This document shows, one piece after another, positions 14,118 to 35,670 of a stretch of 64,000 nt of DNA. Position numbers and translations under genes: made by a program. The notes under the pieces are model-generated. The model had not been told where the DNA came from. It worked only from the letters and a program-made list of their open reading frames with translations, and did not search any database. The stretch comes from an uncultured Actinomycetes bacterium (lineage in GTDB: Bacteria; Actinomycetota; Thermoleophilia; UBA2241): the NCBI GenBank assembly GCA_963709345.1, contig CAVPVX010000001.1, positions 192,001 to 256,000 on the forward strand, given 5' to 3'. The stretch's first letter is position 1. Every line of letters begins with the position of its first letter.

Positions 14118-14194
<77 letters not shown>

Positions 14195-19526: not shown

Positions 19527-19619
19527 AGGCGGACTCTACCCCTTCCGGGAGCGGAGCAGGCCGTCGAGCCGGGGCGCAGAATCGTCTGGAGGTACGGGGA
19601 GCGGGAAGGGAGGCGCCCG

Positions 19620-19862: not shown

Positions 19863-20816
19863 TCAGGCGACCACCGTGGCGCCGGCGGCGGAGGCGCCGA
19901 GGCCGAGCGGGATCGCCGTGACGCCCTCACCGGCGAACGCGTCGGCCATCGCGCGGGCGATACGCAACGCGTCGGTCGCGAGGGCGACGAAGGCGACAAG
20001 GCTTGGCCCCGACCCGGACACCGCGACTGCCGCGGCGCCGGCCTCCAGGGCGGCCAGCCAAGCCGTACGGGCGCCCGGGATGAGCCTGAGGCGGGCGGCC
20101 TGGTGCAGCCGGTCGTCCATCACCTGGCTGAGCAGGTCGTAGTCGCCGGTGCGCAGCGCCTCCACCACGAGCGGCGTGCGCTGCAGGTTGAACACGGCGT
20201 CCTTCATCGACACGTGCGTGGGCAGGTCGGCTCGTGCCGAGCGCGTGCTGAACGGGACGTCGGGCACGGCGAGGGCGACCCTGACCTCGGGCACCAGGAT
20301 CCTCTTGGTGAGCAGGCGGTCGCCCTGCTGCACCACGATCGTCAGGCCGCCGAGCAGGGCCGCCGCGACGTTGTCGGGATGGCCCTCGATGTCGGCGGCA
20401 AGCTCCAGTATCCGGGTGAGGTCGAACGGCCGGCCCAGCAGCGCGTTCGCGCCGAGGAGGCCGGCCGCCACCGCAGTCGAGCTCGAGCCGAGCCCCGACG
20501 ACGTCGGCACGCGGATGTCGCAGTGGATGTGCAGGCCGGCGGGAGCGGCTACGCCGGCCGCCTCGCAGAGCCGCGCGTACACCTGCGCGACCAGGTTGCG
20601 CGCGTCGCGCGGCAGCCCGGCGCCGTGCTCACCCGCCACGTCCACCACGACGCCGTCGCCCTCGAGCGTGAAGCGCACGTCGTTCCACAGGTCGAGCGCG
20701 AGGCCCAGACAGTCGAAGCCGGGGCCGAGGTTCGCCGTCGTGGCGGGCACGCGGACCCGGCAGGTCGCGCCGGCGGCGGCGGGGCTCCCGCCGGCGCCTG
20801 CGGCCGCGGCGTTCAT
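19863..20816 (-). CDS. thrB: Homoserine kinase
   Basis: VPATTANLGPGFDCLG, GLGSSS, EGHPDNV, SGSGPS; start overlaps the dedA stop. Confidence 0.93.
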   Translation of the reverse strand: MNAAAAGAGGSPAAAGATCRVRVPATTANLGPGFDCLGLALDLWNDVRFTLEGDGVVVDVAGEHGAGLPRDARNLVAQVYARLCEAAGVAAPAGLHIHCDIRVPTSSGLGSSSTAVAAGLLGANALLGRPFDLTRILELAADIEGHPDNVAAALLGGLTIVVQQGDRLLTKRILVPEVRVALAVPDVPFSTRSARADLPTHVSMKDAVFNLQRTPLVVEALRTGDYDLLSQVMDDRLHQAARLRLIPGARTAWLAALEAGAAAVAVSGSGPSLVAFVALATDALRIARAMADAFAGEGVTAIPLGLGASAAGATVVA

Positions 20817-21463
20817 GCCTCGTCCCCGTAGTCCGCCGGGCCGGGACCCCCGGGCCGGCGTCCCCTCCTCCACTTCACGAACGCCCCCACGACGATCGCG
20901 ACCAACGCCGCGACCACCACGTAGTCGGCGTAGTGCAGGTACGGGCGCAGATCCTCCCAGTGAGCGCCGAGCCGCGTGCCCAACCAGCCGAGAAAGAAGA
21001 CCCAGGGGACGCAGCCGAGCGTGGTGTACAAGGTGAACTTCCAGAACGGCATTCTGGCGATGCCCGCCGGCAACGAGATGAACGTGCGCACGATCGGCAG
21101 GCAGCGGCTGAAGAAGACGACCGGCGGCCCGTACTTGGCGAACCAGCGCTCCGCCAGCTCCACGTGGTGGTGGCGGAGCAGCACGTACTTGCCCCACCTG
21201 TCGATGAAGGGGCGGCCGCCGTAGAGGCCGACCCAGTAGGCGATCCACGAGCCGACGACGTTGCCGGCCACGCCGGCGACGGTGATGCCGAAGAGGGTCA
21301 TGGCGCCCTCGGTCACCGCGAAGCCGGCGAAGGGCATGATCGCCTCGCTCGGCACGGGGATGCAGGCGCTCTCGAGCAGCATCAGGAAGAAGACGGCCGG
21401 CAGGCCCCAGTCGCCGATGAGGCCCGTCGCCCACTGCACGACGATGTCGATGATTGAGGTCAC
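20813..21463 (-). CDS. DedA family membrane protein
   Basis: LESACIPVPSE, RCLPIVRTFISLPAG. Confidence 0.93.
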   Translation of the reverse strand: MTSIIDIVVQWATGLIGDWGLPAVFFLMLLESACIPVPSEAIMPFAGFAVTEGAMTLFGITVAGVAGNVVGSWIAYWVGLYGGRPFIDRWGKYVLLRHHHVELAERWFAKYGPPVVFFSRCLPIVRTFISLPAGIARMPFWKFTLYTTLGCVPWVFFLGWLGTRLGAHWEDLRPYLHYADYVVVAALVAIVVGAFVKWRRGRRPGGPGPADYGDEA

Positions 21464-21596
21464 GCGCGCAAGAGTACCGCACGCGGCGCATCAGCGGCGA
21501 ACACCGCGCGCGAGGACCGCCCGCCAGGTAGCCCATCTCCGGCGGCCTGTGGTAGGTTCCGGGCCCGACATCTCCCGCCGCAAGGAGGCGCATCGC

Positions 21597-22694
21597 ATGG
21601 CCGTCGGACTCATGGACATCAAGGGGCAGTACGCCGAGCTGCAGGACCGCATCGAGCAAGCCGTGCTGGACGTGCTGCGCAGCGGCCGCGTCATCCTCGG
21701 GCCGAACGTCAAGAGCTTCGAAGAGGAGGCCTCCGCGTACATGGGCACTTCGGGGTCCGTCGGCGTCGCCAACGGCACCGACGGCCTCACCATCGCGCTG
21801 CGCGCGCTGGGGATCGGCGCCGGCGACGAAGTGATCACGGTGCCGTTCACCTTCTACGCCACGGCCGAGGCCATCGCCCAGTCCGGGGCGAAGCCGGTGT
21901 TCGTCGACATCCTGCCCGACACGCTCTGCATCGACCCCACCGGCGTCAAGGCCGCGATCACGCCGCGCACCAAGGCGATCATGCCGGTCGACCTCTTCGG
22001 CCTGCCGGCCGACTCCGACGCCGTCCGTGCGGTGGCCGAGGCCCGCGGCATCGCCATCGTCGAGGACGCCTGCCAGGCATGGGGCGCGACCTACTTCGGG
22101 CGTCGCGCCGGCAGCCTCGGCGACCTGGGTGTCTTCAGTTTCTTCCCGACCAAGAACCTCGGCGGGTACGGCGACGGCGGGCTCGTCACCGGCCATAGCG
22201 AGGTGCTCGTGCAGCGCGCCCGGGAGCTTCGCTTCCACGGCAGCAAGGACAAGAAGACGTTCACCGACATCGGCTTCAACTCGCGGCTCGACGAACTGCA
22301 GGCCGCGATCCTGCGCATCGAGCTCGGGGTGATCGACGAGTGGAACGGCCGGCGCGCCCTGGTCGCGGAGTGGTACGACCAGTACCTGCCCGACGAGGTC
22401 ATGCGCCCGGCCGTGCCCGACGGCATCACCCACGTCTACCACCTGTACGTGATCCGCCACCCCGAGCGCGACGCCATCGCCGCGGCGTGCAAAGAGCGTC
22501 ACGTCGACTGCGCCGCCTACTACACGACGCCGCTGCACCTGCAGCCGGCCTTCGCCGACCAGGGTCACAAGCTCGGCGACTTCCCGAACACGGATGAGGC
22601 CGCGGCGCGTAACCTCGCCCTGCCGATGCACCCGAACCTCACCGAGGAGCAGGTCCAGGAGGTAGCCGCGGCCGTCGCCGCCGGGCTCGCCTGA
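21597..22694 (+). CDS. DegT/DnrJ/EryC1/StrS sugar aminotransferase
   Basis: VANGTDGL, EDACQAWG, SFFPTKNLGGYGDGG, NSRLDELQAAIL. Confidence 0.95.
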   Translation: MAVGLMDIKGQYAELQDRIEQAVLDVLRSGRVILGPNVKSFEEEASAYMGTSGSVGVANGTDGLTIALRALGIGAGDEVITVPFTFYATAEAIAQSGAKPVFVDILPDTLCIDPTGVKAAITPRTKAIMPVDLFGLPADSDAVRAVAEARGIAIVEDACQAWGATYFGRRAGSLGDLGVFSFFPTKNLGGYGDGGLVTGHSEVLVQRARELRFHGSKDKKTFTDIGFNSRLDELQAAILRIELGVIDEWNGRRALVAEWYDQYLPDEVMRPAVPDGITHVYHLYVIRHPERDAIAAACKERHVDCAAYYTTPLHLQPAFADQGHKLGDFPNTDEAAARNLALPMHPNLTEEQVQEVAAAVAAGLA

Positions 22695-22745: not shown

Positions 22746-23840
22746 GTGAGGATCTGGGTCGACATCACCGACGGCTCGGCGGTCGTCTTCTTCGCGCCCA
22801 TCGTGCGGCGGCTCGAAGAGGGCGGCCACACGGTGACGCTCACGGCGCGCCGCTTCGCCGGCGCCGACCTCATCCTGCGGCGCTACGGCCTCGGCGGCGT
22901 GCTCACGACCCAGCACCGCGGCGGGAGCCTGGGTACCCGCGCCGTCGGGCTCGTCAACCGCACGGCGCAGCTCCTCGTCTCGGCCTCGAGCGGCCACTTC
23001 GACGTGGCCGCCGGCAGCCACGCCAGCGACTTCGTGCTCACCGCCTGGACGCTGGCGATCCCCCAGATGACCTTCCTCGACGACGAACGCCTGGGGCGCG
23101 GCAACGCAGTCAGCGCGCGGCTCGTCGACGAGATCGCCGTGCCCGACGCCGTACCTGCGGCTTCACTCGCCGCCCTCGGCGTACCGCAGCAGAAGGCCTG
23201 GCTCTACCCGGGCTTCAAGGAGGAGTACTACCTGCACGACGCGCGACCCGACCCCGAGGCGCTGCGTCGTCTCGGGGTCGACCGCCGCCGCATCGTCGGA
23301 GTGGTGCGCCCGGCCGCATCCGGCTCGCCCTCGCCCGGCGGCTCGGCGGCGGCCGGGGAAACGGCGCTCGGAGAGCTCCTGCGGGAGCTCGCCGGCCGGC
23401 GCCGCGTGACCCTCGTCGTCGTGGCGCGCGACCGCGAGCAGCGGCGGCGCTTTCTGGCGCTCGAGCTTCCGGGCGTGCTCGTGCCCGACGGCCCGGTGGA
23501 CGGCGTAGGGCTGCTGGCAGCCGCCGACTTCATGCTGGGGCTCGAGGGCGCAATGACGCGCGAGGCGGCGGCGCTCGGCACCCCCGCCTACACGTTCTCG
23601 CAGCGGCGGGCGACGGCTGTCGACGCGACGCTGCTCGCGGACGGGCGCCTGAAGCGTGCGACCGGGCCCGACGACGTCGCCCTTCGCAAGAAGGACACGC
23701 GCACGGCGGCCTTCGCCCCGCGCGACCCCGGGCTCTTCGCCGGCCGGCTCCTCCACCTGGCCGGCCGAGACTTCCGGCGAGCCCGCCGCGGCCGCCTCAT
23801 CCAGGACGCCACCGACGAGCCGCCAACGCCACTCGTCTGA
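22746..23840 (+). CDS. DUF354-family GT-B-fold protein
   Basis: MRIWVDIT..FFAPIVRRLE..GH.V.LTAR, YPGFKEEYYL, MTREAAALGTP. Confidence 0.75.
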   Translation: MRIWVDITDGSAVVFFAPIVRRLEEGGHTVTLTARRFAGADLILRRYGLGGVLTTQHRGGSLGTRAVGLVNRTAQLLVSASSGHFDVAAGSHASDFVLTAWTLAIPQMTFLDDERLGRGNAVSARLVDEIAVPDAVPAASLAALGVPQQKAWLYPGFKEEYYLHDARPDPEALRRLGVDRRRIVGVVRPAASGSPSPGGSAAAGETALGELLRELAGRRRVTLVVVARDREQRRRFLALELPGVLVPDGPVDGVGLLAAADFMLGLEGAMTREAAALGTPAYTFSQRRATAVDATLLADGRLKRATGPDDVALRKKDTRTAAFAPRDPGLFAGRLLHLAGRDFRRARRGRLIQDATDEPPTPLV

Positions 23841-23907: not shown

Positions 23908-24810
23908 ATGGACATCCGTCAGATCAGGCTCTTCTGCCGCATCGTCGACCGTCGCAGCTTCTCGCTCGCCGCCGACGAGGTGCACATCACGCAGCCGGCC
24001 GCGAGCCAGCAGATCCGAAGTCTGGAGCGCGAGCTCAAGACGACCCTGCTCGACCGCTCGCGCCGCACCGTCGTGCCCACGGACTCGGGGCAGGTCCTCT
24101 ACCGGTACGGCCGTGAGATCCTCGGCCTCCACGAGCGCGCCTGCACGGAGATCCTCGACCTCGGCGAGCTGGTCGCAGGCCACATCAAGGTCGGCGCCTC
24201 CACCGGCCCGGGGGAGCACGTGCTGCCGGGCATGCTCACGAGGTTCAAGCGAGAGTACCCGGGGATCTCGATCACGCTGAACGTGGACGATACGCACGCC
24301 GTGATCGAGCGTGTGCTCTCTCGGGAATTCGAGGTAGGGGCGGTCGGCGCCGTGACGCCGCGGCCGGAACTGGTCGCGGAGCCGCTCGCGCGCGACGAAC
24401 TCGTGCTGGTCTGCAACCCGAGCCACCCCTGGGCGAAGCGCGACCAGGTGACGTTGGGCGATCTGGCCGGCGAACCACACATCATGCAGCAGAAGGGCGC
24501 GGGCGTGCGCACCGTCCTCGAGAACCACCTGCGGCGCGCCGGCGTCCGCCCCGAGAAGCTCAACGTGGTCATGGAGATGGGCCTCATGGAGTCGGCCAAA
24601 CAGGCGGCCATCTCCGGCGGCGGCGTCACCTTCGTCAGCCGCTGGGCGATCGGCCCCGAGCTCGACTACGGGTCTCTGACCGTCGTGCCCGTCGAGGGCT
24701 TCAGGATCCTGCGCGACTTCTACAGCGTGCGCTCGAAGACGCGAGTGCTGAGCAAGGCCGCCGAAACCCTGCTCGCCTACTTCCGCGAGCAGTACGCGGC
24801 GGCCGGCTGA
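23908..24810 (+). CDS. LysR-family regulator (CysL-like)
   Basis: SFSLAADEVHITQPAASQQIRSLE HTH; VGASTGPGEHVLP. Confidence 0.9.
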   Translation: MDIRQIRLFCRIVDRRSFSLAADEVHITQPAASQQIRSLERELKTTLLDRSRRTVVPTDSGQVLYRYGREILGLHERACTEILDLGELVAGHIKVGASTGPGEHVLPGMLTRFKREYPGISITLNVDDTHAVIERVLSREFEVGAVGAVTPRPELVAEPLARDELVLVCNPSHPWAKRDQVTLGDLAGEPHIMQQKGAGVRTVLENHLRRAGVRPEKLNVVMEMGLMESAKQAAISGGGVTFVSRWAIGPELDYGSLTVVPVEGFRILRDFYSVRSKTRVLSKAAETLLAYFREQYAAAG

Positions 24811-25018
24811 CCTCCGGTCCGGCCGAATCGGCGGCGGCCGCAACGGCTGCGTCGAGGTGAAGGGACGCCGCCGGACCGACGGCCTCCGGGTTCCCGCAAC
24901 TATTCAAATTTCGTATTCCACCAGGATCGTGTATCAGGCCAGCTAATGCCGCGGGCACGTGCAGGCGTGGCCCGGCGGGTGCGACCGCGCGGCCTCCTTC
25001 TTCATTCCGGAACCTTAT

Positions 25019-25047
25019 TTGACAGATAATCTGAGCCTGCCCATACT
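25019..25047 (+). promoter_or_regulatory. Sigma70-type promoter for tauE-comA
   Basis: TTGACA-N17-CATACT. Confidence 0.65.
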
Positions 25048-25138
25048 CACGCCCATTCGGGGCGCCGGTCCCGCTTCGCGCGGGCTCCGCCCAGCGCGGA
25101 CTCGTGCGGCGACCGCCGCCCGCAAGCCCAGGGGGCAG

Positions 25139-26167
25139 ATGACCGAGAGTGAGAGCACAGCCGTAGCCGTCGAAGGGGCGCCGGGCGCACCGGCGCGGGA
25201 TGAGGCCGCGCAGGCAGCCCCCGACGACGACGTCTTCGACCCGGACATCGACGACACGATTCCTCCGTTCCGGCCCGGGCCCGAGCCGACGGGTGTCGGT
25301 TCGAGCGCCTGGCTGAAACGCTGGGCGCTCGGCATGAGCGGGTGGGCCGTCGTCGTCGTGGTCGCCTACCTCACGCTCGGGGGCGAGCTGAACGGCTACC
25401 TGACCATCACCGGCCTCTTCGTCGGCTTCCTGGTCGGGCTGACCGGCATGGGCGGCGGCGCGCTCATGACCCCGGTGCTGATCTTCTTCTTCGGGTTCTC
25501 CCCCACGATGGCGATCGGCACCGACGTCACCTATGCCGCCGTCACTAAGGTCTTCGGCTCGTGGAAGCATTGGAAGCAGGGCTCGGTCGACGTGCCGCTC
25601 GCCCTCTGGCTGGCCCTGGGCAGCATCCCCGCGTCACTCGCCGGCGTCGCCGCCGTGGCCTACGTCAAGAGCACCTACGGCGACCTGGTCAACCACATCC
25701 TCTACCGGGCGATCGGCTCGGCGCTGATGCTGGTGGGCGTCCTGCTCATCGTCAAGGTCGTGCTGCATGTCGACCAGCGGCACCGACGCGAGAACATCAC
25801 GATGACCACCCGCCTCAAAGTGATGACGGTGTGCCTCGGCATAGGGACCGGCTTCGTGATCGGCCTCACCTCGGTCGGCAGCGGTACGCTGCTGGCCGTC
25901 TTCCTGATCCTCTTCTATCCGCTCACGACGGACCGGATCGTCGGCACCGACGTCTTCCACGCGATGATCCTTCTGACCATCACCGGTCTCGCGCAGATCG
26001 GCGTCGGCAACGTCGACCTGTGGATGGTGACGGCGCTGCTCATGGGCTCGATCCCCGGAGTGCTGCTCGGCTCGCAGCTCACGGTCCACGCCCCCACCCG
26101 CATGCTCCGCGGCATCCTCGCCGCCGTCCTCTTCCTCAGCGGGCTCGCGCTGCTCTTCAAGAGTTGA
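25139..26167 (+). CDS. Sulfite exporter TauE/SafE family
   Basis: GLTGMGGGALMTP, AIGTD, GLTSVGSG, IVGTDVFHA; multiple TM segments. Confidence 0.9.
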   Translation: MTESESTAVAVEGAPGAPARDEAAQAAPDDDVFDPDIDDTIPPFRPGPEPTGVGSSAWLKRWALGMSGWAVVVVVAYLTLGGELNGYLTITGLFVGFLVGLTGMGGGALMTPVLIFFFGFSPTMAIGTDVTYAAVTKVFGSWKHWKQGSVDVPLALWLALGSIPASLAGVAAVAYVKSTYGDLVNHILYRAIGSALMLVGVLLIVKVVLHVDQRHRRENITMTTRLKVMTVCLGIGTGFVIGLTSVGSGTLLAVFLILFYPLTTDRIVGTDVFHAMILLTITGLAQIGVGNVDLWMVTALLMGSIPGVLLGSQLTVHAPTRMLRGILAAVLFLSGLALLFKS

Positions 26168-26248
26168 CGCTCGCCCGAGGCGGGCCGCCGGTCTGGTACC
26201 ATCTGTCGAGGGCCGTGAAAAGCGGCGCGCGACCACGGAGGATGACCG

Positions 26249-27001
26249 ATGTTCGAGTTCCTGGCGCTCCCCGATCGCACCGCGAAGCCGCGCGAGAGCG
26301 GGCTCACGCACGTGCTCGACAAGGGGTACAGCCTCGACCAGGTGCGCCAGTTCCTCGAGGTGGCCGAGGGCTACGTGGACATCGTCAAGCTCGGGTGGGG
26401 GACCGCGGTCGTCACGCCCAACGTCAAGGAGAAGATCACCCTCTACCAGAGCTTCGGCATCCCCGTGTGCTTCGGCGGCACCTTCTTCGAGGTCTGCTTG
26501 CGACAGAACAGGCTTGAGGAGTTCCTGGCCGCCGTGCGCGAGTGCGAGATGGACTACGTGGAGGTCTCCGACGGCACGATCGATATCGACGAAGCGGACA
26601 AGCTCGCGATCCTGCGCCGGCTCAGCCGGGAGTTCAGGGTACTCAGCGAAGTCGGCAGCAAGGACGAGGCCTCCGTCATCGCCCCTTTCAAGTGGGTCGA
26701 CAGCATCAAGCGCGAGCTCGACGCCGGCGCCTGGAAGGTGATCGCTGAGGGTCGCGAGTCGGGGACCGTCGGCATCTACCAGCCGGGAGGAGAAGTCAAG
26801 GAAGGCCTGCTCGACGAGATCCAGAGCGCGGTCGACCCGGCGCAGCTCCTCTTCGAGGCGCCGATCAAGCAGCAGCAGACCTGGTTCATCAAGAAGTTCG
26901 GACCGAACGTGAACCTCGGCAACATCCCGCCCGAAGAAGTGATCTCGGTCGAGACCCTGCGTGTGGGCGTACGCAGCGACACGCTGCTCGACTTCCACTG
27001 A
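26249..27001 (+). CDS. comA: Phosphosulfolactate synthase
   Basis: KPRESGLTHVLDKG, VKLGWGT, GGTFFE, EVSDGTI, SEVGSK, EGRESG, FEAP, VNLGNI, ETLRVGVRSDT. Confidence 0.95.
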   Translation: MFEFLALPDRTAKPRESGLTHVLDKGYSLDQVRQFLEVAEGYVDIVKLGWGTAVVTPNVKEKITLYQSFGIPVCFGGTFFEVCLRQNRLEEFLAAVRECEMDYVEVSDGTIDIDEADKLAILRRLSREFRVLSEVGSKDEASVIAPFKWVDSIKRELDAGAWKVIAEGRESGTVGIYQPGGEVKEGLLDEIQSAVDPAQLLFEAPIKQQQTWFIKKFGPNVNLGNIPPEEVISVETLRVGVRSDTLLDFH

Positions 27002-27003
27002 CC

Positions 27004-27624
27004 GTGCCGCCCGGACGCCCGCTCGCGCGACTCCTGCTCATCCGCCACGGCCAGACCGACTGGAACCTCGAGCCGGCGCGATGCCAGGGCTGGGCCGAGG
27101 TGGAACTCAACGAGGCCGGCCGCGCACAGGCGCGCGACCAGGGTCGCGCGCTCCGAGGGCGCGGCCTCCAGCTCATCGTCACCAGCCACCTGCTGCGCGC
27201 CTGCGAGACCGCCGACCTGATCCACGCCGAGCTCGGCGGTGACCTGCCGCTCGTCGTGGATCCCCGTCTCGCCGAGACGCACCGCGGCGAGTGGGAGACG
27301 CGCCTCTTCGCGGACATCGTCCGCGAGGAGGCCGAGACCTGGCGCGCGTACCAAGAGCGCCCCGAGGGCTTCCGCTTCCCGGCCGGCGAGAGCCTCGCCG
27401 AGCAGCAGCGCCGGGTGCTCGCCTGCCTGCGCGACTGCGCGCTCGACGGTCGCAGCGCGCTCCTCGTCACTCACGGGGGCAGCATCCGCCTCACGCGCTG
27501 CTTCATGGAGGGTCGCGGCATCCACGCCTTCCACACGACGAAGACAGCCAACGGCGGCGTCGATGAGGTCGCCACCAGCGGCCTCGCCGAGCGCATCGAC
27601 GACTTCCTGGCGCCGGACGGCTGA
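27004..27624 (+). CDS. Histidine phosphatase family protein
   Basis: LIRHGQTDWN, SHLLRACET, GESL, VTHGG; starts 2 nt after the comA stop. Confidence 0.9.
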   Translation: MPPGRPLARLLLIRHGQTDWNLEPARCQGWAEVELNEAGRAQARDQGRALRGRGLQLIVTSHLLRACETADLIHAELGGDLPLVVDPRLAETHRGEWETRLFADIVREEAETWRAYQERPEGFRFPAGESLAEQQRRVLACLRDCALDGRSALLVTHGGSIRLTRCFMEGRGIHAFHTTKTANGGVDEVATSGLAERIDDFLAPDG

Positions 27625-27635
27625 GGACGGGCGCC

Positions 27636-28793
27636 GTGAGACCGCCCGAGAGCGCGGGAGGCGGCGGGCCCTTCGGCAAGCGCAAGGCCCGGGTGATACC
27701 CGACCCGCCGGAGATGGATGAGGCGCAGGGTCGGCGGGCCTTCTGGTTCGTCCTCGTGCTGCTCGCCGTCACAGCGCCGGCGATGGCTGGCGTGGTCACG
27801 CTCAACGTGGTGGCCGACCCGTACGGCACCGTCGGCACTCGTTTCTTCCCGACGGTGACGGCATCGGACCGGACGGTCAAGGCGGACAAGATCGAAGAGC
27901 TGAAGGAGCCTCCCGAACTTGTCGTGCTCGGCAGCTCACGCTCCATGCGCTACGAACCGTCCTATCTCGAGGAGAAGACGGGGCTGCGGACCTTCAACGC
28001 CGGCGTCAACGGCATCGGCGGCATCGCCGATGCGTGGGCGATGACGCAGTTCATCCACGAGACCTGGCCCGACGCGCGCCCCGCCTACCTGTGGTTCATC
28101 GACGTCGAGTCGTACGTGCCCTTCGAGATCGGCGTCCGCACCGCAGGCGAGCCGCGGCTGGCGCGATTCGTCGATCAGGCGTCGGCCGGCGAGGGAGCGC
28201 GACGGCTCGCGACGGCCGTCTGGGAGAACCGCTCGACCATGTGCTCACTCGCTACTGCCTGGGAGTCGGGGCGTCTCCTCCTCTTCCGCAAGAAGGCGAA
28301 GGTGGAGCAGACGAAGTATCGCAAGCGGATCCTGGACGACGGCGCCCTCAAGCAGCGTCGCTGGAGCGAGAGGGAGTGGAAGCGCCGCTGGGTCGACTCC
28401 CGCGAGCGCTACACCGAACTCTACGCGACCATCTACGAGAGGATGGACCCCAGGACCGAGGAGTACTTCGAGAAGACGCTCGAGTTCATGAACGAGCAAG
28501 GCGCGGCTCCCCTCGTCGTGCTCACGCCCATCAACCCCAAACTGCGCAGGATCCTCGTCCCCCTGGGCTGGAACGAGCGCCACGAGCAGGTGACGGCGTA
28601 TATCGAAGCACAGCAGAGCGTGTACGACTTGACGTTCCTCGACATGACCGACCCGACGGTCTTCGGCTTCGATCCCACGCAGTGGTACGACGGCGTACAC
28701 ATGACGGCGATCAACACGCGGCCCGCGATCGACCACGTCCTCGAGCAGACCGGCGGCGTGCCGCCGGTCGAGCCGGCGGCGAGCGGGGACTAG
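27636..28793 (+). CDS. Membrane-anchored SGNH-like protein (MBOAT partner)
   Basis: N-terminal TM, LGSSRS, FNAGVNG, C-terminal WYDGVHM (DxxH). Confidence 0.7.
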   Translation: MRPPESAGGGGPFGKRKARVIPDPPEMDEAQGRRAFWFVLVLLAVTAPAMAGVVTLNVVADPYGTVGTRFFPTVTASDRTVKADKIEELKEPPELVVLGSSRSMRYEPSYLEEKTGLRTFNAGVNGIGGIADAWAMTQFIHETWPDARPAYLWFIDVESYVPFEIGVRTAGEPRLARFVDQASAGEGARRLATAVWENRSTMCSLATAWESGRLLLFRKKAKVEQTKYRKRILDDGALKQRRWSEREWKRRWVDSRERYTELYATIYERMDPRTEEYFEKTLEFMNEQGAAPLVVLTPINPKLRRILVPLGWNERHEQVTAYIEAQQSVYDLTFLDMTDPTVFGFDPTQWYDGVHMTAINTRPAIDHVLEQTGGVPPVEPAASGD

Positions 28794-28803
28794 GGCCGGC
28801 GGC

Positions 28804-30219
28804 TTGCTTCTCAACAGCTACACCTTCCTGCTCGTCTTCCTCCCGGTCGTCGTCCTTCTCTACTGGGCGATGCCGCGCGGCTACCCACGCCTGCTGTTCC
28901 TGATCGCCGCCTCGCTCGTCTTCTACGGGCTCTGGGATTGGCGCTTCATCCCACTGCTGCTTGCGACGACGCTCGTCGACTGGGCGGCAGGTCGGCTTCT
29001 GGCGCAAGACGAGGGCGAGGACGGAGGCGGCAGGAGCGGCCGCCGCCGCAAGCTCATCCTTGCGGCGGCCATCGCCGTCAACCTCGGCTTCCTCGGCTAC
29101 TTCAAGTACCGGGGCTTCTTCGTCGACTCGCTCGACGGCCTCATCCGGCTCCTCGGCGCCGGCGAGCCGCTGCCGGCCCTGCGCGTCCTGCTGCCGATCG
29201 GCATCTCCTTCTACACCTTCGCCGGCATCTCGTACGCCGTCGACGTCTACCGCGGCACGATCAAGCCGGCGGAGAGCGTGGTCCACTACCTCGCCTGGGT
29301 CACGCTGTTCCCTTACATCCTCGCCGGCCCCATCATCCGCTACGGCCACGTCGGCGCCCAGCTTGAACGCGCGCAGCAGCGCTTCCGCTGGGCGCTCATC
29401 GGCACCGGCCTCTTCTTCCTCGTCATGGGCCTCGCCAAGAAGATGCTCGTCGCCGACATGATGGCGCCCTACGTCAACGACCTCTTCGCCCATCACGCCC
29501 AGCTCGGCCTGCTGTCCGGCTGGGGCGCTGCCCTCGGCTTCACGCTGCAGCTCTACTTCGACTTCTCCGGCTACAGCGACATGGCCGTGGGCGTGGCCTT
29601 CATGATCGGGCTCCGCTTCCCCCAGAACTTCGACTCACCCTACAAGGCGGTCAGCGTCAGTGATTTCTGGCGGCGCTGGCACATGACGCTCTCGAGCTGG
29701 CTCCGCGACTACATCTTCATCCCGCTCGGCGGCTCGCGCGGCTCGAAGCTCCTGACCGTCCGGAACCTGCTGATCACCTTCCTGCTCGGCGGCCTCTGGC
29801 ACGGCCCCGCCTGGACCTTCGTGGTCTGGGGTCTCCTCTGGGGCGTCTACCTCTCGGTGCACTCGACCCTGCGCAAGCACGGGCTCACGCCGAGGTGGGT
29901 GTGGCTCAATCGCGGCATCACCTTCCTGTGCGCCGTCGTCGCCTGGGTGTTCTTCCGCGCCTCGTCGCTGCGCGCGGCCGGCGACGTGCTGCAGGCGATG
30001 CTCGGGTTGAACGGGGTGGGCGGCGCGGGCACGCTGCGTCTCGCGCCCGTCCTCGGCGCCTTCATCGCCGGCGGCCTCCTGTGGGTGAACGTCCTGCCCA
30101 ACACCTGGGAGATCACGCCCAGACCCAAGCTGCGCTACGCGCTGCTCCTCGGCATCCTTCTTGCCGCCTCGCTGCTGGCGTTGAGCAAGCCGAGCGCCTT
30201 CCTGTACGTGCAGTTCTGA
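28804..30219 (+). CDS. MBOAT O-acyltransferase (AlgI/DltB-like)
   Basis: LPIGISFYTF, AGPIIR, QLYFDFSGYSDMA, FWRRWHMTLSSWLRDY, GLWHG. Confidence 0.95.
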   Translation: MLLNSYTFLLVFLPVVVLLYWAMPRGYPRLLFLIAASLVFYGLWDWRFIPLLLATTLVDWAAGRLLAQDEGEDGGGRSGRRRKLILAAAIAVNLGFLGYFKYRGFFVDSLDGLIRLLGAGEPLPALRVLLPIGISFYTFAGISYAVDVYRGTIKPAESVVHYLAWVTLFPYILAGPIIRYGHVGAQLERAQQRFRWALIGTGLFFLVMGLAKKMLVADMMAPYVNDLFAHHAQLGLLSGWGAALGFTLQLYFDFSGYSDMAVGVAFMIGLRFPQNFDSPYKAVSVSDFWRRWHMTLSSWLRDYIFIPLGGSRGSKLLTVRNLLITFLLGGLWHGPAWTFVVWGLLWGVYLSVHSTLRKHGLTPRWVWLNRGITFLCAVVAWVFFRASSLRAAGDVLQAMLGLNGVGGAGTLRLAPVLGAFIAGGLLWVNVLPNTWEITPRPKLRYALLLGILLAASLLALSKPSAFLYVQF

Positions 30220-30301: not shown

Positions 30302-31279
30302 TCAGAGAGAGAGGCTGAGGGCGGTGTCGCGCAGCGCCCAGCGCCGAAGCTCAAGATTCTTCGGCAACTTCACCCAGAAGGCGAAGGCCTGCTCGTCACC
30401 GACGAGACCGGAGACGCCGTTCTGCGTGACCTCGATCCAGCCCTGCCAGCGGCCGGCGAGGTCGAGCGGCCAGGCCGACGACACCTGCAGCTCCTGGCCG
30501 GGCTGAAGCGTCAGCGGCTGGTCCGAGACGAGGTCGTGGTCGGTGCCGCCGGGCCCGCGAATGGCGAGCCGGATGCCCTCCAGGTCGAGAGGCGCGTGTC
30601 CGCTGTTCACGAGCGTGAACCAGGCGTAGATGCGCTGGCCGACCTCGCGGTCGCCGCTGTCGAGCTTGACGGAGCCGTCCAGGGCGACGAGCCCGGGCAG
30701 ACTCGAGGGCGGCTCGGAGGGCGCAACGGTCGCGGCGCCGGCGCCGAGGCGCGTGTCCGCAGGGTCGCCGCCGAGTTCCGCCATGAAGGCCTTGACGTTG
30801 GCGACCCAGTTCGCGGTGCCGTCCGGGCAGTACTTCGGAGCGATCGCGTCGACGGAGTACAGGCCGGAACCGTAGTAGAGGCTCCCGGCCAGACCGGCGG
30901 CGACGCGCTCGATGCCGTGCTCCCACGACGTGAAGTCGCTGGTCGGCCACGTGGGTCCGTAGAACCAGTTGAAGGCGTTGTACGTGCACTGGTCGCCGTT
31001 CTCCGAGTACAGGTACAGGCCGAAGCTCGACTCGGCGCCGGCTATGGCTACCAGGAACGCGGGCGCGACACCATTGGCCTCGCCCGCGGCCACGAAGGTG
31101 GCGCCGCTGCCGGCCATCGGCGAGCCGTGCGCCGTGAGAAAGGCGTCGATCTGCGCGGCGTCGGGGGACGCCGCGGCCGCCGGCGCGAACGCGCCGGCCA
31201 GGGCGGCGGCCAGCAGCGCGACGAGCAGCGCCGCGAAGAAGACGCGGGAGCGGATGCTTGGTGCTGTGGTGACGATCAC
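30302..31279 (-). CDS. Secreted lysozyme/glucosaminidase-like protein with C-terminal Ig-like domain
   Basis: Signal peptide; IDAFL..GSPM..G..FV..G...GV.P.FLVAIAGAESSFG, NAFNW, IAPKYCP. Start is uncertain. Confidence 0.65.
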   Translation of the reverse strand: MIVTTAPSIRSRVFFAALLVALLAAALAGAFAPAAAASPDAAQIDAFLTAHGSPMAGSGATFVAAGEANGVAPAFLVAIAGAESSFGLYLYSENGDQCTYNAFNWFYGPTWPTSDFTSWEHGIERVAAGLAGSLYYGSGLYSVDAIAPKYCPDGTANWVANVKAFMAELGGDPADTRLGAGAATVAPSEPPSSLPGLVALDGSVKLDSGDREVGQRIYAWFTLVNSGHAPLDLEGIRLAIRGPGGTDHDLVSDQPLTLQPGQELQVSSAWPLDLAGRWQGWIEVTQNGVSGLVGDEQAFAFWVKLPKNLELRRWALRDTALSLSL

Positions 31280-31454
31280 CGGCGCGGGCCTTTCTCTGCG
31301 AGTGCGGACTCCGAGTATAGACGAGTCGGGTGCGGCAGCCGACCCGAGCCCCGTTCGAGAGACGCCGGGCGGGCGGGCGCGGTTCGTGGTCCCGACCCCG
31401 TTGGCCCGGCGGCCGACGGACCATGAACGGGTCGCGACCAGATAGGATGACGCC

Positions 31455-32588
31455 ATGACCGCAGCGACCGACGACAGACGCGATTACCACGCCTGCGACG
31501 ACCGGTTCCCGGGCGCGCAGGTCATACGGCTCGCCCGCCGGGCTATCGAACGCGCACGCCTGGACCTCACGGGTCTGCGCGTGCTCACGGAGGCGTCCGT
31601 GGGCTACCGGCGCGTGACTCCCGTCATCGCCGCGCTCGCCGGGGCGGACGCCGTCTTCGCCGTCGGCCGCGACGGCGTGCAGGCGTCGCGCAAGCAGGCG
31701 GAGGAACAGACCGCCTATCTCGCGGCGCTGGCTCGGGTGGACGACCGCATCATGCTGCTCTCCACCCGCCTGCAGGCGCCGCTCGACACCATCGACGTGG
31801 TGACCGACCTGCCCGGCGTGCGCCCCGTCGACGAGTCGATCCTGCGTACCGTCGCCGAGTCCGCCGCCGTCACGCTGATGCGCGGCACGGCGCACTGGAG
31901 CGCTGCGAACGTCGATGTCGCGACCTGCCGGCGACGGGGCATCGCCGTCGCGGGCGTCGACGAAGAGGCGGTCGGCCTGTACCGCTACCTGCCGCTTGAG
32001 ATCCTCGCCGGGCTGCTCGACCTCGGAGTCGAGGTCGCCGGCTCGACGCTGGTCGTAGCCGGCGCCGGCGCCGGCTACGCCTACGTCGTGCAGGCGCTCG
32101 GCCGGCTCGGGGCGCGCGTGCTCGTGGCCGCGCCGGACACGGCCGGCCGCATCGGGCTCTACGGCGGCGAGCGCATCGGCGAGACGCTCGGCGACGAGTC
32201 CGTCGTCGGCCGCCTCGCCGAAGCGGACGCGCTCGTGCTGTGCCCGGGTCCGGGCGGCGAGCGCTGGGTGGGGCCCGGCGCCGTCGTGGACGCGGCCCGC
32301 CTGGCGGCCGCCGCGCCGCACCTCGCCGTAGCCGGCTTCAGAGCCGAGGCGGACCTGCGCACCCTCGCGACGGCCGGCCTGCACTGCCGGCCGGCCGGCG
32401 ACACCCGCGATCTCTTCGACCTGCTGCCGCAGCCGCTCGTCGCCCTGCACGCCGCGGGGCTGAAGGTCGGTGAGGTCATGGCGCGTGCCCGGCGCCGCGG
32501 TTCGTCCCCGCTCGCGGCGGAGCAACTGGCAGCCGCCGACGCGCACGCCGAACTGCTTCCCCAGGACCTCGGCGGCCGGCGCCGGTGA
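31455..32588 (+). CDS. Hypothetical protein with Rossmann/dehydrogenase-like features
   Basis: LDLTGLRVLTEAS, RPVDE, NVDVATCRRRGIAVAG, VVAGAGAG; leaderless TAGGAT promoter. Confidence 0.6.
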   Translation: MTAATDDRRDYHACDDRFPGAQVIRLARRAIERARLDLTGLRVLTEASVGYRRVTPVIAALAGADAVFAVGRDGVQASRKQAEEQTAYLAALARVDDRIMLLSTRLQAPLDTIDVVTDLPGVRPVDESILRTVAESAAVTLMRGTAHWSAANVDVATCRRRGIAVAGVDEEAVGLYRYLPLEILAGLLDLGVEVAGSTLVVAGAGAGYAYVVQALGRLGARVLVAAPDTAGRIGLYGGERIGETLGDESVVGRLAEADALVLCPGPGGERWVGPGAVVDAARLAAAAPHLAVAGFRAEADLRTLATAGLHCRPAGDTRDLFDLLPQPLVALHAAGLKVGEVMARARRRGSSPLAAEQLAAADAHAELLPQDLGGRRR

Positions 32589-32694
32589 TAAACTAGCCTC
32601 CCGACGACGGCGACCGGCGGCCGGCGGCCGTCCCCGCAGCCGGCCGATCCCACCAGCTCCCGGAGGCACCACGAACCCGCTCGCCAAGCTCCGC

Positions 32695-34413
32695 ATGGGT
32701 AAGCGCAAGAAGGCCGGCAGCCACGGCTACTCGCTGCTGCTCAAGGATTCGGTGATCTACGGCGCCGGGCGCGCGCTGCAGAAGTTCCTCGTCGCACTCC
32801 TGCTTCCCCTCTACACCGCCTTCCTCACCCAGGCGGACTACGGCATCCTCGGCATGGTCGTCACGGTCACGACCTTGCTCGACGTCTTCGTCACGCTGGG
32901 CTTCGACGTCGCCTTCAGCCGCTTCTACTTCGACGACAAGGGCGAGGCGGCGCGCCGGCGCGTCATCACCAACGTCTTCTACGTGTCCACCGTCTACCCG
33001 CTGATCCTCCTCGGGACGGTGGGAGTACTCATGCCGCGACTCGCGCCGCTCCTGCTCGGCAAGGAGTACGACACCGGCGACTGGCGCTACTTCGCCGTAG
33101 CGCTCGCGACGCTCTTCTTCAGCAACCTCAACGACCTGCCCTTCACGCTGTTCCGCCTCGAGCACCGGCCGTGGATCTTCTCCGCGTACACGATCGGCCG
33201 GGTACTGGTCCAGGTACCCCTCTCCATCGTCTTCGTCGCCGTCTTCGACTGGGGGCCCATGGGCGTGCTGCTCGCCAACCTCTTCACCGCCGCCGGCATG
33301 CAGTGCGGTCTGTTACCCACCTACATCCGCAAGGTCGACTGGCGCTGGCACTGGCAACTCATGAGGCCGATGCTGGCGTTCGCCGTCCCGGCGCTGTTCA
33401 CCGGCGTCTCGTTCTACTGGCTCAAGCTGTCGGACCGCTACTTCCTGCTCCACTACCAGGGCAAAGCGGTCGTCGGCCTCTACACGGTCGCGTACTCGCT
33501 CAGCCAGCCGCTGTACCTCACGCTGATGGCGTTCCGCATGGCGTGGCCGCAGTGGCACTACGCCAAGCTGCACGAGCCCGAGAGGCACAAACGGATGGTC
33601 GCGCGCTCGTCGACGTACTTCCTCGCCCTGAACGCCCTCCTGCTCGTGCTGATAGGCGCCTTCATGCCGCTCATCGTCCACACCTTCCTCAACGAGCGCT
33701 TCTGGAGCATCGGCCCTACGACCGTCGTGCTCTCCCTCTCGGTGGTCGTGTACGCCGTCTACTTCGTCTTCTGGGTCGGCTCCAACGTCGCCAAGAAGAA
33801 CCGCATGATCCCGGTCTTCTTCCTGATAGCCTCGGGGGTGAACATCGGTCTCAACTTCCTCCTGGTGCCGCGGTACGGCATGTACGCGGCGGCATGGACC
33901 CACGTGGCGGGCTTCGCGATCCTGGCGGTGACCGTCTACTTCTACTCGGAGAAGTGGTACCCGATCCCCTACGAGTGGCGGCGGCTCCTCAAGATCGTCC
34001 TCGCGACCGTGCTGACCCTGGCCGCGGCCTGGGGCATCGCGCGGGCCTTCGGCCAGAGCGTGTACATGCCCTACGACGAGCTGGTCGTGAGCTCGCTGGC
34101 GCAGGTCCCGGCCCTTCTCGTGTTCCCGCTCGCGCTCCTCGCCACGGGGTTCTTCACACCGGGCGAGCGTGACAAGCTGCGCCGCGCGTTCGGGCGGCTG
34201 TCCGGGCGGCGAAGCGTGCCCGCGCCTGCGGAGGACGCGGCCGTGCCGGCCGCCGCGGCGGCGGCGCTCCCGGCCGCGGCGGGCGGCGAAGAAGTCGACC
34301 GCAGCTCGCGCCTCAGCGCCGACGACATCGAGGCCGAGGAAGAAGAGCTCGAGATGGAGAAGGCAGCCGACATCGACCTCATCGAAGGCCCCACCACGAC
34401 CACCATCACCTGA
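32695..34413 (+). CDS. wzx: Polysaccharide flippase (Wzx family) with acidic tail
   Basis: DSVIYGAG..LLLPLYTAFLTQADYG, SDRYFL..VGLYTVAY, LNFLLVPRYGMYAAAW. Confidence 0.88.
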   Translation: MGKRKKAGSHGYSLLLKDSVIYGAGRALQKFLVALLLPLYTAFLTQADYGILGMVVTVTTLLDVFVTLGFDVAFSRFYFDDKGEAARRRVITNVFYVSTVYPLILLGTVGVLMPRLAPLLLGKEYDTGDWRYFAVALATLFFSNLNDLPFTLFRLEHRPWIFSAYTIGRVLVQVPLSIVFVAVFDWGPMGVLLANLFTAAGMQCGLLPTYIRKVDWRWHWQLMRPMLAFAVPALFTGVSFYWLKLSDRYFLLHYQGKAVVGLYTVAYSLSQPLYLTLMAFRMAWPQWHYAKLHEPERHKRMVARSSTYFLALNALLLVLIGAFMPLIVHTFLNERFWSIGPTTVVLSLSVVVYAVYFVFWVGSNVAKKNRMIPVFFLIASGVNIGLNFLLVPRYGMYAAAWTHVAGFAILAVTVYFYSEKWYPIPYEWRRLLKIVLATVLTLAAAWGIARAFGQSVYMPYDELVVSSLAQVPALLVFPLALLATGFFTPGERDKLRRAFGRLSGRRSVPAPAEDAAVPAAAAAALPAAAGGEEVDRSSRLSADDIEAEEEELEMEKAADIDLIEGPTTTTIT

Positions 34414-34431: not shown

Positions 34432-35670
34432 ATGACCCCCCGCACAGCGAAGAAGCTGCTCGTGATCGCAAATCCGTACCCGCCGATGGCGAGCGCCGGT
34501 ACGACGCGGGTCGTCCGCTTTCTGCGGCACCTGCCGGAGCACGGCTGGGAGCCGGCCGTGCTCACGGCGAAGGCCGAAGGCCCGGCGGCACTCCCGCCGG
34601 GGGTGCGCGTCGCGCGCGCGACCGTACCGTGGCCGCGCCGGTTGCTCGGCGGCGGCCCGCGCAGCACGAAGGTGAACGGCTGGGTCGCGGTTCCCGACCC
34701 GTACTTCGCCTGGGTCGGGCCGGCCGTGCTCAAGGGCCGCGAGATCTTCAAGCGCGAGCGCTTCGACGCCATCTTCAGCAGCTCGCCGCGGGCGAGCGTG
34801 CACCTCGTCGCCGCAGTCCTCTCCGAGCACGCCGACGTACCGTGGCTGGCCGACTACCGCGACCCGTGGTCGACCTACCAGTTCAGAAAGTACCCGACCG
34901 GCGCGCACAAGAACGCCCACGCCCGACTCGAGTCGTGGGCCCTGGAACGCGCCGCCGCCGTGACCGCCGTGAACCGGCCGATCGTCGACGACCTCGTCGC
35001 GCGGCATCCCTGGCTGGACGGCCGCACGCACGTGCTCCCCAACGGGTTCGACCGCGCAGAGGTGCCGGCGGACGTATCGCTCGGCGAAGGCTTCTGGATC
35101 GTGCACACCGGCCGGCTCTACGGACGCGAGCAGCAGGTGAGCGCCTTCCTCACCGCCCTCGCCGGCCTGCCGCCCGACGTCAAGGCGCTGTTCGTCGGCG
35201 TCGACGAGACCCGCATACGCCCGGACGCCGAGCGACTGGGGCTCGGCGACCGCGTCCGCGTCGAACCACTCGTGCCTCTCGACGAGGCGCTCGGCTACCA
35301 GCGGGCGGCCGACGCGCTGCTGCTCGTGAACGGACGCCGGCCGGAGAGCATGTCCAGCAAGGTCTTCGAGTACCTGCAGGCCGGCCGGCCGATCTTCGCC
35401 ATCTCGCCGGCCGGCTCGGCCGCACGGGGGCTCTTCGAGGAGGTCGGCGGCGGCACCTGCGTGCTGCCAGACGACCCGATGGGCGAGCCCCTCGCGGCCT
35501 TCGTCGCCGAATCTCGCGCCGGCGCGGTGGCACGCGCGGAGCCGGCGGCCCTCGAGCGCTACGAGCTGGGCCGCCTCACCAGCGACCTGGCCGCGATCCT
35601 CGACGGCCTTGCAGTGCCGCTCGCGAGCACCGGGCAGGTGGGCGGGGGCGCTGGTACCATGGACGAATGA
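34432..35670 (+). CDS. Glycosyltransferase, GT4-like
   Basis: YPPMASAGTTR, ADYRDPW, PNGFD, SKVFEYLQAGRPI. Confidence 0.9.
   Translation: MTPRTAKKLLVIANPYPPMASAGTTRVVRFLRHLPEHGWEPAVLTAKAEGPAALPPGVRVARATVPWPRRLLGGGPRSTKVNGWVAVPDPYFAWVGPAVLKGREIFKRERFDAIFSSSPRASVHLVAAVLSEHADVPWLADYRDPWSTYQFRKYPTGAHKNAHARLESWALERAAAVTAVNRPIVDDLVARHPWLDGRTHVLPNGFDRAEVPADVSLGEGFWIVHTGRLYGREQQVSAFLTALAGLPPDVKALFVGVDETRIRPDAERLGLGDRVRVEPLVPLDEALGYQRAADALLLVNGRRPESMSSKVFEYLQAGRPIFAISPAGSAARGLFEEVGGGTCVLPDDPMGEPLAAFVAESRAGAVARAEPAALERYELGRLTSDLAAILDGLAVPLASTGQVGGGAGTMDE

Follow-up and report, generated by a model that had tools for sequence, protein, structure and literature searches.

Among the spore sulfolactate genes of Bacillus subtilis, YitD corresponds to the phosphosulfolactate synthase ComA and YitC to ComB, and the pair is accompanied by sulfate-activation genes; in known bacterial glycans, negative charge is supplied by phosphate, carboxylate or sulfate esters. 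A locus in which a ComA homologue is embedded among genes for an envelope glycan hints at an undescribed sulfonated surface glycan. It lies in a 64,000-nucleotide stretch of DNA, analysed here at its full length as 'the window' (contig CAVPVX010000001.1, positions 192,001 to 256,000, assembly GCA_963709345.1), from the genome of an uncultured soil Thermoleophilia bacterium (3.11 Mb, 98% complete, ~70% G+C), where ComA is followed by a histidine phosphatase, an SGNH-like protein and an MBOAT acyltransferase. The original prediction for this stretch held that these genes may make sulfolactate for a surface glycan, with the SGNH-like/MBOAT pair moving it there; the reading preferred here, to which a probability of about 0.45 is assigned, keeps sulfolactate as the probable glycan decoration and treats the SGNH-like/MBOAT pair as a separate system.

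The locus resembles the Bacillus gene set, and the first two steps of coenzyme M (CoM) synthesis in methanogens, in that ComA is followed by a phosphatase; as in Bacillus, sulfate activation and reduction genes are found beside ComA (here in relatives of the source genome) and later CoM steps are missing. It departs from the Bacillus arrangement in the use of a histidine phosphatase in place of ComB, in its position inside a Wzx/Wzy-type glycan locus, and in the probable fate of the product, polymer attachment instead of storage in free form. A second resemblance, of the SGNH-like and MBOAT genes to acyl-transfer pairs such as DltB/DltD, AlgI/AlgJ and PatA/PatB, is taken up with that gene pair below.

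Two further bacterial uses of ComA have been described. The misNOPQ cassette of the misaugamycin cluster, encoding an acyl carrier protein, an acyl-CoA ligase, ComA and a glyoxalase, is predicted to supply a 2-sulfoacetyl tail, and sulfite feeding favoured the sulfonated product (PMC9136965). misNOPQ offers a precedent in which ComA would contribute to an acyl decoration: both systems employ an actinobacterial ComA homologue, there to provide a sulfonated acyl decoration of a larger molecule, although misNOPQ acts on a peptide and includes a carrier and a ligase, whereas the present locus has no carrier, a phosphatase as partner and a glycan as its putative target (PMC9136965). XcbABCDE is the bacterial CoM pathway of Xanthobacter autotrophicus and likewise begins with a ComA-type step (XcbB), but removes phosphate by means of an aspartase/fumarase-type lyase and continues to CoM, where the present locus would use hydrolysis and the window holds no later Xcb-like genes (PMC9457059).

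No paper on sulfolactate in glycans, or on sulfolactate in Thermoleophilia, was found in the literature searched, in which 'sulfolactyl' and 'sulfolactoyl' have zero occurrences and from which subscription journals are mostly absent. A SAR11 paper among the results has a transporter island as its subject and not glycans. A sulfolactate module tied to a surface glycan, undescribed in the literature found, is plausible.

ComA and its phosphatase partner

The LysR, TauE, ComA, phosphatase, SGNH-like and MBOAT genes are co-oriented on the + strand (23908–30219), and open reading frame (ORF) coordinates bear out the gaps first reported, of 2 nt between ComA and phosphatase, 11 nt between phosphatase and SGNH-like gene and 10 nt between SGNH-like gene and MBOAT. 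The four genes of the proposed sulfolactate module are:

23908–24810, + strand: LysR-family regulator, presumed to serve the sulfur module (Pfam HTH_1, LysR_substrate)
24959–26167, + strand: TauE/SafE (TSUP) anion permease (Pfam TauE, 150 bits, residues 149–398 of 402)
26249–27001, + strand: ComA, (2R)-phospho-3-sulfolactate synthase homologue (Pfam PF02679)
27004–27624, + strand: histidine phosphatase, branch 1 (Pfam PF00300, His_Phos_1, 152.7 bits)

ComA, present as a single copy in the source genome, matches PF02679 with 301.8 bits (cut-off 25.2) across profile positions 2–243 of 243, and is highly similar to solved phosphosulfolactate synthases, namely B. subtilis YitD (1u83; E 1.8e-58), to which it is closer, and M. 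jannaschii ComA (1qwg; E 2e-48). The phosphatase carries the motifs LIRHGQT (RHG) and VTHGG (THGG), of which the RHG and the second His are presumably the catalytic residues, as in the family at large; its nearest PDB relatives are phosphatases, not mutases, and include PhoE, the phosphoserine phosphatase PspA and the glucosyl-3-phosphoglycerate phosphatase GpgP. ComA and phosphatase lie 0–58 nt apart in 21/22 loci of the source genus, and the pairing recurs in 8/11 loci of sister genera in the same family and in 37 of the best 80 ComA loci (out of ~600 in the species collection), mostly from Solirubrobacterales; metagenome-assembled genomes (MAGs) labelled Conexibacter and Solirubrobacteraceae are among the ComA loci of that collection.

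The 2-nt coupling, the kept pairing and the absence of ComB together suggest that the histidine phosphatase is a phosphosulfolactate phosphatase standing in for ComB. A literature search for a histidine phosphatase acting on phosphosulfolactate returned no such paper, most of what it retrieved using 'coma' and 'comb' in other senses. ComA and the phosphatase probably constitute a credible sulfolactate module, judged by the families they belong to, by their gene coupling and by the lack of alternatives for the individual steps.

The TauE and LysR genes originally noted upstream are both present, but the CysL-like label does not hold, as the top NCBIfam match of the regulator is the 'selenium metabolism-associated LysR' family NF040786 (262 bits, cut-off 250); a LysR gene occurs near ComA in three families of the class (f1, f2 and f3, defined below). 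The TauE domain begins only at residue 149, so the true start of the permease is uncertain; a promoter-like site (consensus match only) is situated at 25019–25047 on the + strand.

Coenzyme M synthesis and the supply of sulfite

The absence of other CoM genes from the window, as first reported, extends to the whole 98%-complete genome: ComB (PF04029), ComC/Ldh_2 (PF02615) and ComD (TIGR03845) have no match, and the best score to ComE (TIGR03846) is 29 bits against a cut-off of 221.5, from sub-threshold matches of thiamine pyrophosphate enzymes. CoM synthesis, and with it the possibility that comBCDE elsewhere in the genome account for ComA, was therefore rejected. With no CoM pathway in the genome, no gene but the phosphatase is a candidate for the second step, which would yield sulfolactate.

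PAPS-reductase-family genes (PAPS, 3'-phosphoadenosine 5'-phosphosulfate) and ATP sulfurylase are present in the source genome, and in relatives a sulfate ABC (ATP-binding cassette) transporter, PAPS reductase, adenosine 5'-phosphosulfate kinase and ATP sulfurylase are encoded between LysR/TauE and ComA, or after ComA; the lineage appears to reduce sulfate to sulfite. The siroheme sulfite/nitrite reductase family (NIR_SIR, PF01077) was found in 0/54 genomes of the genus, the source genome included, against a match in 11/14 control genomes; in this genus sulfate reduction may stop at sulfite, without assimilation into sulfide. Because the genus is without a siroheme sulfite reductase, ComA is the only sulfite sink seen; no other was noticed, sulfite oxidases and the sulfoquinovose route not having been searched for. 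The route had been described as PAPS-independent, which is apt in that no sulfotransferase is needed, but the only sulfite source seen is sulfate activation and reduction by way of ATP sulfurylase and PAPS reductase.

Association of ComA with glycan loci

ORF coordinates, G+C content at third codon positions (GC3) and Pfam/NCBIfam scans delimit the envelope-glycan locus as one long run from ~20.8 to 50.6 kb. It opens with a VTT/DedA-family gene (- strand), a DegT aminotransferase and a DUF354 gene, followed by LysR, TauE, ComA, the His_Phos_1 phosphatase, the SGNH-like 385-aa protein and MBOAT; a convergent gene for a secreted protein (- strand), a gene for a 377-aa soluble protein, Wzx, a GT4 glycosyltransferase and Wzy_C come next, then an ATP-grasp gene, two hexapeptide acyltransferases, two ATP-grasp-like paralogues and DUF7033, and finally GT4, PIG-L, GT4, an amidohydrolase (- strand), GT4 and Wzz. 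The Wzx/Wzy-type set (Polysacc_synt, Wzy_C and Wzz/GNVR in Pfam, with four GT4 genes) is complete within the window, in which no initiating phosphoglycosyl transferase was seen. The flanks stand as predicted, with DegT and DUF354 upstream and Wzx and Wzy downstream, except that wzy does not directly follow MBOAT; that placement was rejected, since the convergent secreted protein and then the soluble Rossmann protein at 31455–32588 come next.

Conservation was assessed over ~19 kb around ComA from 56 loci, compared by tblastn and by ORF clustering (55 loci clustered, with a GC3 filter that drops some genes). Families are denoted f1, f2 and so on, f1 being the family of the source genus and f5 Solirubrobacterales. 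ComA is encoded in 166/301 sampled Thermoleophilia genomes, with a distribution that follows family: f1 41/49, f2 53/62, f3 55/59, f5 14/24 and f10 2/2, against f4 0/44, f6 0/21 and f7 0/32.

In f1 and f5, the module sits between the same flanks, VTT/DegT/DUF354 upstream and Wzx/GT4/Wzy downstream, with differing internal make-up, and the linkage of ComA to Wzx that the original prediction had proposed to survey is kept in the glycan loci of both. DUF354, DegT and LysR are near ComA in f2 and f3; DUF354 is found near ComA in f1, f2, f3 and f5, and VTT orthologues adjoin DegT in ComA loci of f1, f2 and f5. In sister genera, the ComA–phosphatase pair runs into Wzx–GT4, so closely in some loci that hardly any space, or none, is left for an extra gene, and GT4 lies a few kb downstream, often behind Wzx. 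The occurrence of ComA–phosphatase inside glycan loci of two families, and the retention of DegT/DUF354 in f2 and f3, favour a surface-glycan link over chance.

The partner of ComA differs by lineage: f1 and f5 have the phosphatase, and a flavoprotein of ~400 aa (FAD_binding_2) takes its place in f2 (6/6), f3 (7/7) and f10 (2/2); loci of the flavoprotein type include L051, L054, L058, L060, L061, L100–L104 and L126, and phosphatase and flavoprotein occur together in none of the 55 clustered loci. Fumarase-like alpha and beta subunits are encoded beside ComA in f3, f10 and some f1 genera. Sulfolactate being the sulfonate analogue of malate, a route to sulfoacrylate or sulfopropionate is conceivable in the loci with flavoprotein and fumarase-like genes.

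Candidate attachment genes

Downstream of Wzy, the locus encodes candidate ligases that could join sulfolactate to a sugar amine, and proteins found together with them:

37100–38305, + strand: ATP-grasp ligase, PylC-like (Pfam ATPgrasp_Ter, 46 bits; PylC-like_N)
39935–41242 and 41128–42453, + strand: two ATP-grasp-like paralogues, candidate sulfonated-acid ligases (CPSase_L_D2, E 7e-6)
42246–44048, + strand: DUF7033 protein (Pfam DUF7033, 34 bits), travelling with ATP-grasp genes
44989–45876, + strand: PIG-L family de-N-acetylase, a possible source of a free sugar amine (Pfam PIG-L, 55 bits)

The first of these is clearly an ATP-grasp protein, with PDB matches of the carbamoyl-phosphate synthase and RimK/LysX types. 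ATP-grasp orthologues, PIG-L and DUF7033 are found at most 9 kb from ComA in 6/11 sister-genus loci and also in f10, where DUF7033 directly follows ComA in locus L097. Relatives of the 39935–41242 gene roughly follow ComA by family (f1 45/49, f2 46/62, f3 31/59 and f10 2/2, against f4 1/44, f6 0/21, f7 2/32 and f5 3/24), counts that are descriptive only, since kin are not independent.

Relatives of the paralogues at 39935–42453, with 32–34% identity, also stand beside or near ComA in two MAGs of other phyla. A Deltaproteobacteria contig encodes a glycosyltransferase, a Wzx-like flippase and ComA, followed directly by a relative of the paralogues (AG3-like) and a flavoprotein; a Binatia contig carries a PylC-like ATP-grasp protein, PIG-L, GT4, an AG3-like protein, an XcbC-like lyase and ComA, and after it GT4, an epimerase, PAPS reductase and a polysaccharide deacetylase. 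In Binatia locus L184, a Lyase_1 gene of the Xcb lyase kind adjoins ComA. Because ATP-grasp and PIG-L genes accompany ComA more widely, including in two other phyla, they are a likelier attachment route than the SGNH-like/MBOAT pair, and on this co-occurrence an amide between sulfolactate and a sugar amine provided by DegT or PIG-L is the likeliest form of attachment.

Proposed pathway

On the preferred reading, two modules would share one operon inside a Wzx/Wzy-dependent envelope-glycan locus. The first, comprising LysR, TauE, ComA and the histidine phosphatase, would draw on sulfite from sulfate activation and reduction; ComA would add sulfite to phosphoenolpyruvate (PEP) to give phosphosulfolactate, which the phosphatase, in place of the missing ComB, would convert to (R)-sulfolactate. 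Sulfolactate would most likely decorate the glycan of the surrounding genes, with an ATP-grasp ligase of the locus joining it by an amide to a sugar amine from DegT or PIG-L. The second module, the DltD-like SGNH protein and MBOAT, would be genus-specific and O-acylate a polymer on the outer side of the membrane, which is probably this same glycan, with a probably common acyl group (acetyl, for example, would be a guess) and would not carry sulfolactate.

A wider proposal can be advanced tentatively, at clearly shorter than even odds. Much of the class Thermoleophilia may make an envelope glycan bearing a carbon-bonded C3 sulfonate, assembled from PEP and sulfite and attached by an ATP-grasp ligase to an amino sugar; the acid would be sulfolactate in families with the phosphatase, and of a sulfoacrylate or sulfopropionate type in those with fumarase-like and flavoprotein partners. 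The source genus, under the same proposal, would reduce sulfate to sulfite mainly for this anionic, phosphate-free polymer, to which SGNH/MBOAT would add a second acyl decoration.

If the preferred reading is correct, abundant soil actinobacteria produce an anionic surface polymer that is free of phosphate, resists hydrolysis and needs no sulfotransferase for its synthesis, and the histidine phosphatase gains a function as a ComB replacement. It would also explain why sulfate-reduction genes are kept in a genus without sulfite reductase, and would add a new source of C3 sulfonate to the soil sulfur cycle.

A possible free sulfolactate product

An unlikely but serious alternative is that sulfolactate remains free, either as a cytoplasmic anion or compatible solute, as in Bacillus spores, or exported by TauE, for example in sulfite disposal; the position in a glycan locus would then be inherited synteny, and the glycan genes and the SGNH-like/MBOAT pair would act independently of sulfolactate. 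LysR, TauE, ComA and the phosphatase read as self-contained in this respect, providing a regulator, a permease and two enzymes, and the Pfam name places TauE in an exporter family for sulfite and sulfonates. ComA is also found elsewhere in contexts other than glycan loci, such as among glycogen genes in Balneolaceae.

Several observations count against the preferred reading, some of them in favour of this alternative. TauE adjoining ComA fits a soluble product, as does the precedent of Bacillus, in which sulfolactate is free and whose YitD/YitC pair is the closest characterised case (the 1u83 match). Shared ancestry, and not a functional tie, may account for the gene order kept among relatives. 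The paralogues at 39935–42453 are only weakly assigned to ATP-grasp, the ATP-grasp genes are 10–15 kb from ComA in the source locus, their relatives in f2 are unlinked to ComA, and in f5 they are rare where ComA–phosphatase is common (3/24 vs 14/24). ComA itself scores below the NCBIfam equivalog cut-off (TIGR03849, 261.8 vs 280 bits), and every enzymatic step of the sulfolactate-glycan model is predicted from sequence.

A purely soluble role sits less easily with the neighbourhoods. The f1 and f5 modules are placed between the same glycan flanks in spite of their different internal make-up, ComA of f2 and f3 is near DUF354 and DegT, and in sister genera the ComA–phosphatase pair leads straight into Wzx–GT4; ComA again has glycosyltransferase, ATP-grasp, PIG-L or flippase genes as neighbours in the Binatia and Deltaproteobacteria MAGs, which are unrelated.

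The SGNH-like/MBOAT pair

The second gene pair of the operon encodes:

27636–28793, + strand: DltD/DUF1574-like SGNH-fold protein with an N-terminal membrane helix, 385 aa (assigned by fold)
28804–30219, + strand: MBOAT membrane acyltransferase (Pfam PF03062, 110.7 bits)

The label 'SGNH-like' proved right by fold and not by Pfam. The protein falls under every Pfam cut-off (GDSL_2 E 0.021; DUF1574 E 0.022, 14.5 bits against 29.1; DltD E 0.15, 11.8 bits against 22.7), and a PDB sequence search gave chance-level matches only; many homologues at 55–75% identity have precomputed matches to PF07611 (DUF1574) or PF04914 (DltD). The structural model (predicted local distance difference test, pLDDT, 78) has DltD for all of its top ten Foldseek matches (probability 1.00, E 4e-7 to 7e-6), although with low template-modelling (TM) scores of 0.34–0.44. 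G99-S100-S101 and D352-G353-H355 (DGxH) are invariant across 35 sequences. MBOAT aligns with the DltB structure 6bug (E 7.7e-26), including the His-containing stretches RWHMTLSSWLRDY and GLWHG.

The pair thus shares with DltB/DltD, and with AlgI/AlgJ and PatA/PatB, an MBOAT whose His motifs align with those of DltB, encoded 10 nt from its partner, and with DltB/DltD a membrane-anchored partner of nearest DltD fold with a conserved Ser/Asp/His set. It differs in that MBOAT reaches 163.7 bits to TIGR04091 (DltB), far under the cut-off of 375, in a partner below the DltD Pfam cut-off, in the order SGNH then MBOAT, and in its missing companions: in the genome DltC (TIGR01688) has no match, and the best score to DltA (TIGR01734) is 98.9 bits, on another contig, against a cut-off of 559.85. 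A canonical Dlt system was rejected on the missing DltC and the sub-threshold DltA.

Transfer of sulfolactate by this pair, as first predicted, would have it activated and passed through MBOAT, after which the DltD-like SGNH protein would esterify it onto an extracellular glycan, on the model of DltB/DltD. Several findings speak for such transfer, and to that extent against separating the two modules. The four genes are tightly packed, with the short gaps given above, and a promoter/terminator scan (consensus matches only) yielded no terminator-like site on the + strand, so that they are probably co-transcribed; co-transcription usually reflects shared function. The arrangement is seen in 18/22 assessable loci of the genus (17 with MBOAT, and L066, which ends after SGNH and before MBOAT), and the SGNH protein is of the DltD type, not of the AlgJ or DUF459 type, DltD being a protein that handles a non-acetyl acyl group. 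None of the nine genus genomes without ComA yielded an SGNH orthologue, a co-absence that fits coupling and disappearance of the entire locus equally well.

The conserved linkage of comA to MBOAT and SGNH that was anticipated failed to appear in the neighbourhood survey beyond the genus, where ComA–phosphatase persists in glycan loci; this is an outcome that the original prediction had itself named as refuting. The SGNH orthologue was found in 0/11 sister-genus loci; an MBOAT was present in 1/11, at 27% identity and on the opposite strand, and neither gene in 20 loci of other families. Among the best 80 ComA loci, MBOAT is near ComA in four, all with ComA of at least 77% identity and thus of the same genus, and in none of the 76 more distant ones. 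Within the genus, 17 of 25 loci have MBOAT and 16 an SGNH orthologue; three are too short to judge, and 4 of the 22 assessable loci (L038, L046, L064 and L056) keep ComA–phosphatase without the pair, a GNAT-like gene and an amidohydrolase occupying its position in L038.

MBOATs use thioester donors, yet no CoA ligase, adenylating enzyme or carrier protein is encoded in the operon or its spacers. The idea of a hidden carrier gene between phosphatase and SGNH was rejected, since the longer spacers inspected, from six loci of the genus, contained no such gene and just a conserved N-terminal extension in frame with the SGNH gene (..CGILRPRA..FSLL.E.MTPPDDPT.., conserved in L032, L035, L036, L040 and L043), which suggests a longer N-terminus or conserved leader in many members of the genus that is lacking in the window. 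The distance from phosphatase to SGNH gene varies between -4 and 681 nt across 18 loci, on start estimates that this extension makes uncertain in several of them; SGNH and MBOAT, by contrast, are 7–11 nt apart in 9/17 loci. By tblastn, MBOAT sequences map to four places in the source genome and DltD-like sequences to five (eight DltD-like matches in another search, the type being multi-copy), among them two tandem MBOAT–DUF459 (SGNH) pairs on another contig, away from ComA, with MBOATs 43–44% identical to that of the locus.

The variable spacing, the want of ligase, carrier and DltC, and the extra MBOAT–SGNH pairs make ordinary O-acylation of a polymer likelier than sulfolactyl transfer, for which the specific MBOAT mechanism is unlikely and the complete scheme improbable. 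The pair is probably a separate add-on module, inserted at genus level between the phosphatase and the convergent gene. Of the original proposal of sulfolactate for a surface glycan, the synthesis module and its tie to the glycan locus are supported, and the role of SGNH/MBOAT as sulfolactyl mover is not.

The two tandem MBOAT–DUF459 pairs lie in locus L193 (contig C4, 266001–286000) at ~8376–15215; a second TauE-family permease comes after them and ComA is not encoded nearby, so that the genome has another MBOAT–SGNH–TauE neighbourhood. The fourth MBOAT, a distant one (28% identity) on contig C2 (245789–251715) is ~3.5 kb from an adenylate-forming enzyme that is the genome's best, sub-threshold, DltA match; the two may form a separate acyl-transfer system.

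That ComA is catabolic or acts on another substrate, so that the module does not serve sulfolactate synthesis, is consistent with the missed equivalog cut-off (262 vs 280 bits) and is nevertheless very improbable, given its high similarity to solved phosphosulfolactate synthases, a partner that is a phosphatase and not a kinase, the sulfate activation and reduction genes that in relatives tie ComA to a supply of sulfite, and a genus without a siroheme sulfite reductase to use released sulfite (0/54).

Flanking genes and other features

The remaining assigned genes of the glycan locus, and its edges, are:

20813–21490, - strand: VTT/DedA-family membrane protein, upstream locus edge (Pfam VTT_dom, 93 bits)
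21261–22694, + strand: DegT-family sugar aminotransferase (Pfam DegT_DnrJ_EryC1, 385 bits)
22746–23840, + strand: DUF354 protein (Pfam DUF354, 101 bits)
30302–31483, - strand: secreted protein, convergent, ending the operon (high GC3; kept in f1 loci)
31455–32588, + strand: soluble two-domain Rossmann protein, dehydrogenase-like, 377 aa (fold model)
32470–34413, + strand: Wzx-type flippase (Pfam Polysacc_synt, 64 bits)
34432–35670, + strand: GT4 glycosyltransferase (Pfam Glyco_trans_4_4, Glyco_transf_4)
~35700–37268, + strand, start not fixed: Wzy/O-antigen-ligase-like polymerase (Pfam Wzy_C, 48 bits)
49647–50552, + strand: Wzz chain-length determinant, downstream locus edge (Pfam Wzz, GNVR)

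The top NCBIfam match of the DegT protein is PseC (226 bits, under the cut-off of 423), and the DUF354 protein obtained chance-level matches only in a PDB sequence search. The convergent secreted protein belongs to no Pfam family and gives weak glucosaminidase/SLT hints only. The Rossmann protein has no Pfam match even at E 10; its model (pLDDT 87.6) is closest in Foldseek to DpaA (2rir/3d4o; E 3.5e-10, TMt 0.71), followed by D-2-hydroxyacid dehydrogenases and S-adenosylhomocysteine hydrolases. On this modelled fold, a dehydrogenase with sulfolactate or a sugar as substrate is conceivable, although the gene is limited to f1 loci.

Outside the glycan locus, a short phage-integrase-family ORF (204 aa, 10174–10785) is a possible mobile-element remnant, and just upstream of the locus an RtcB RNA ligase and archease are encoded beside a PIN/bifunctional-nuclease-domain protein (16079–19535). 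Downstream, a 499-aa pyridoxal phosphate-dependent (PALP) enzyme (54421–55917) lies beside a response-regulator–EAL protein.

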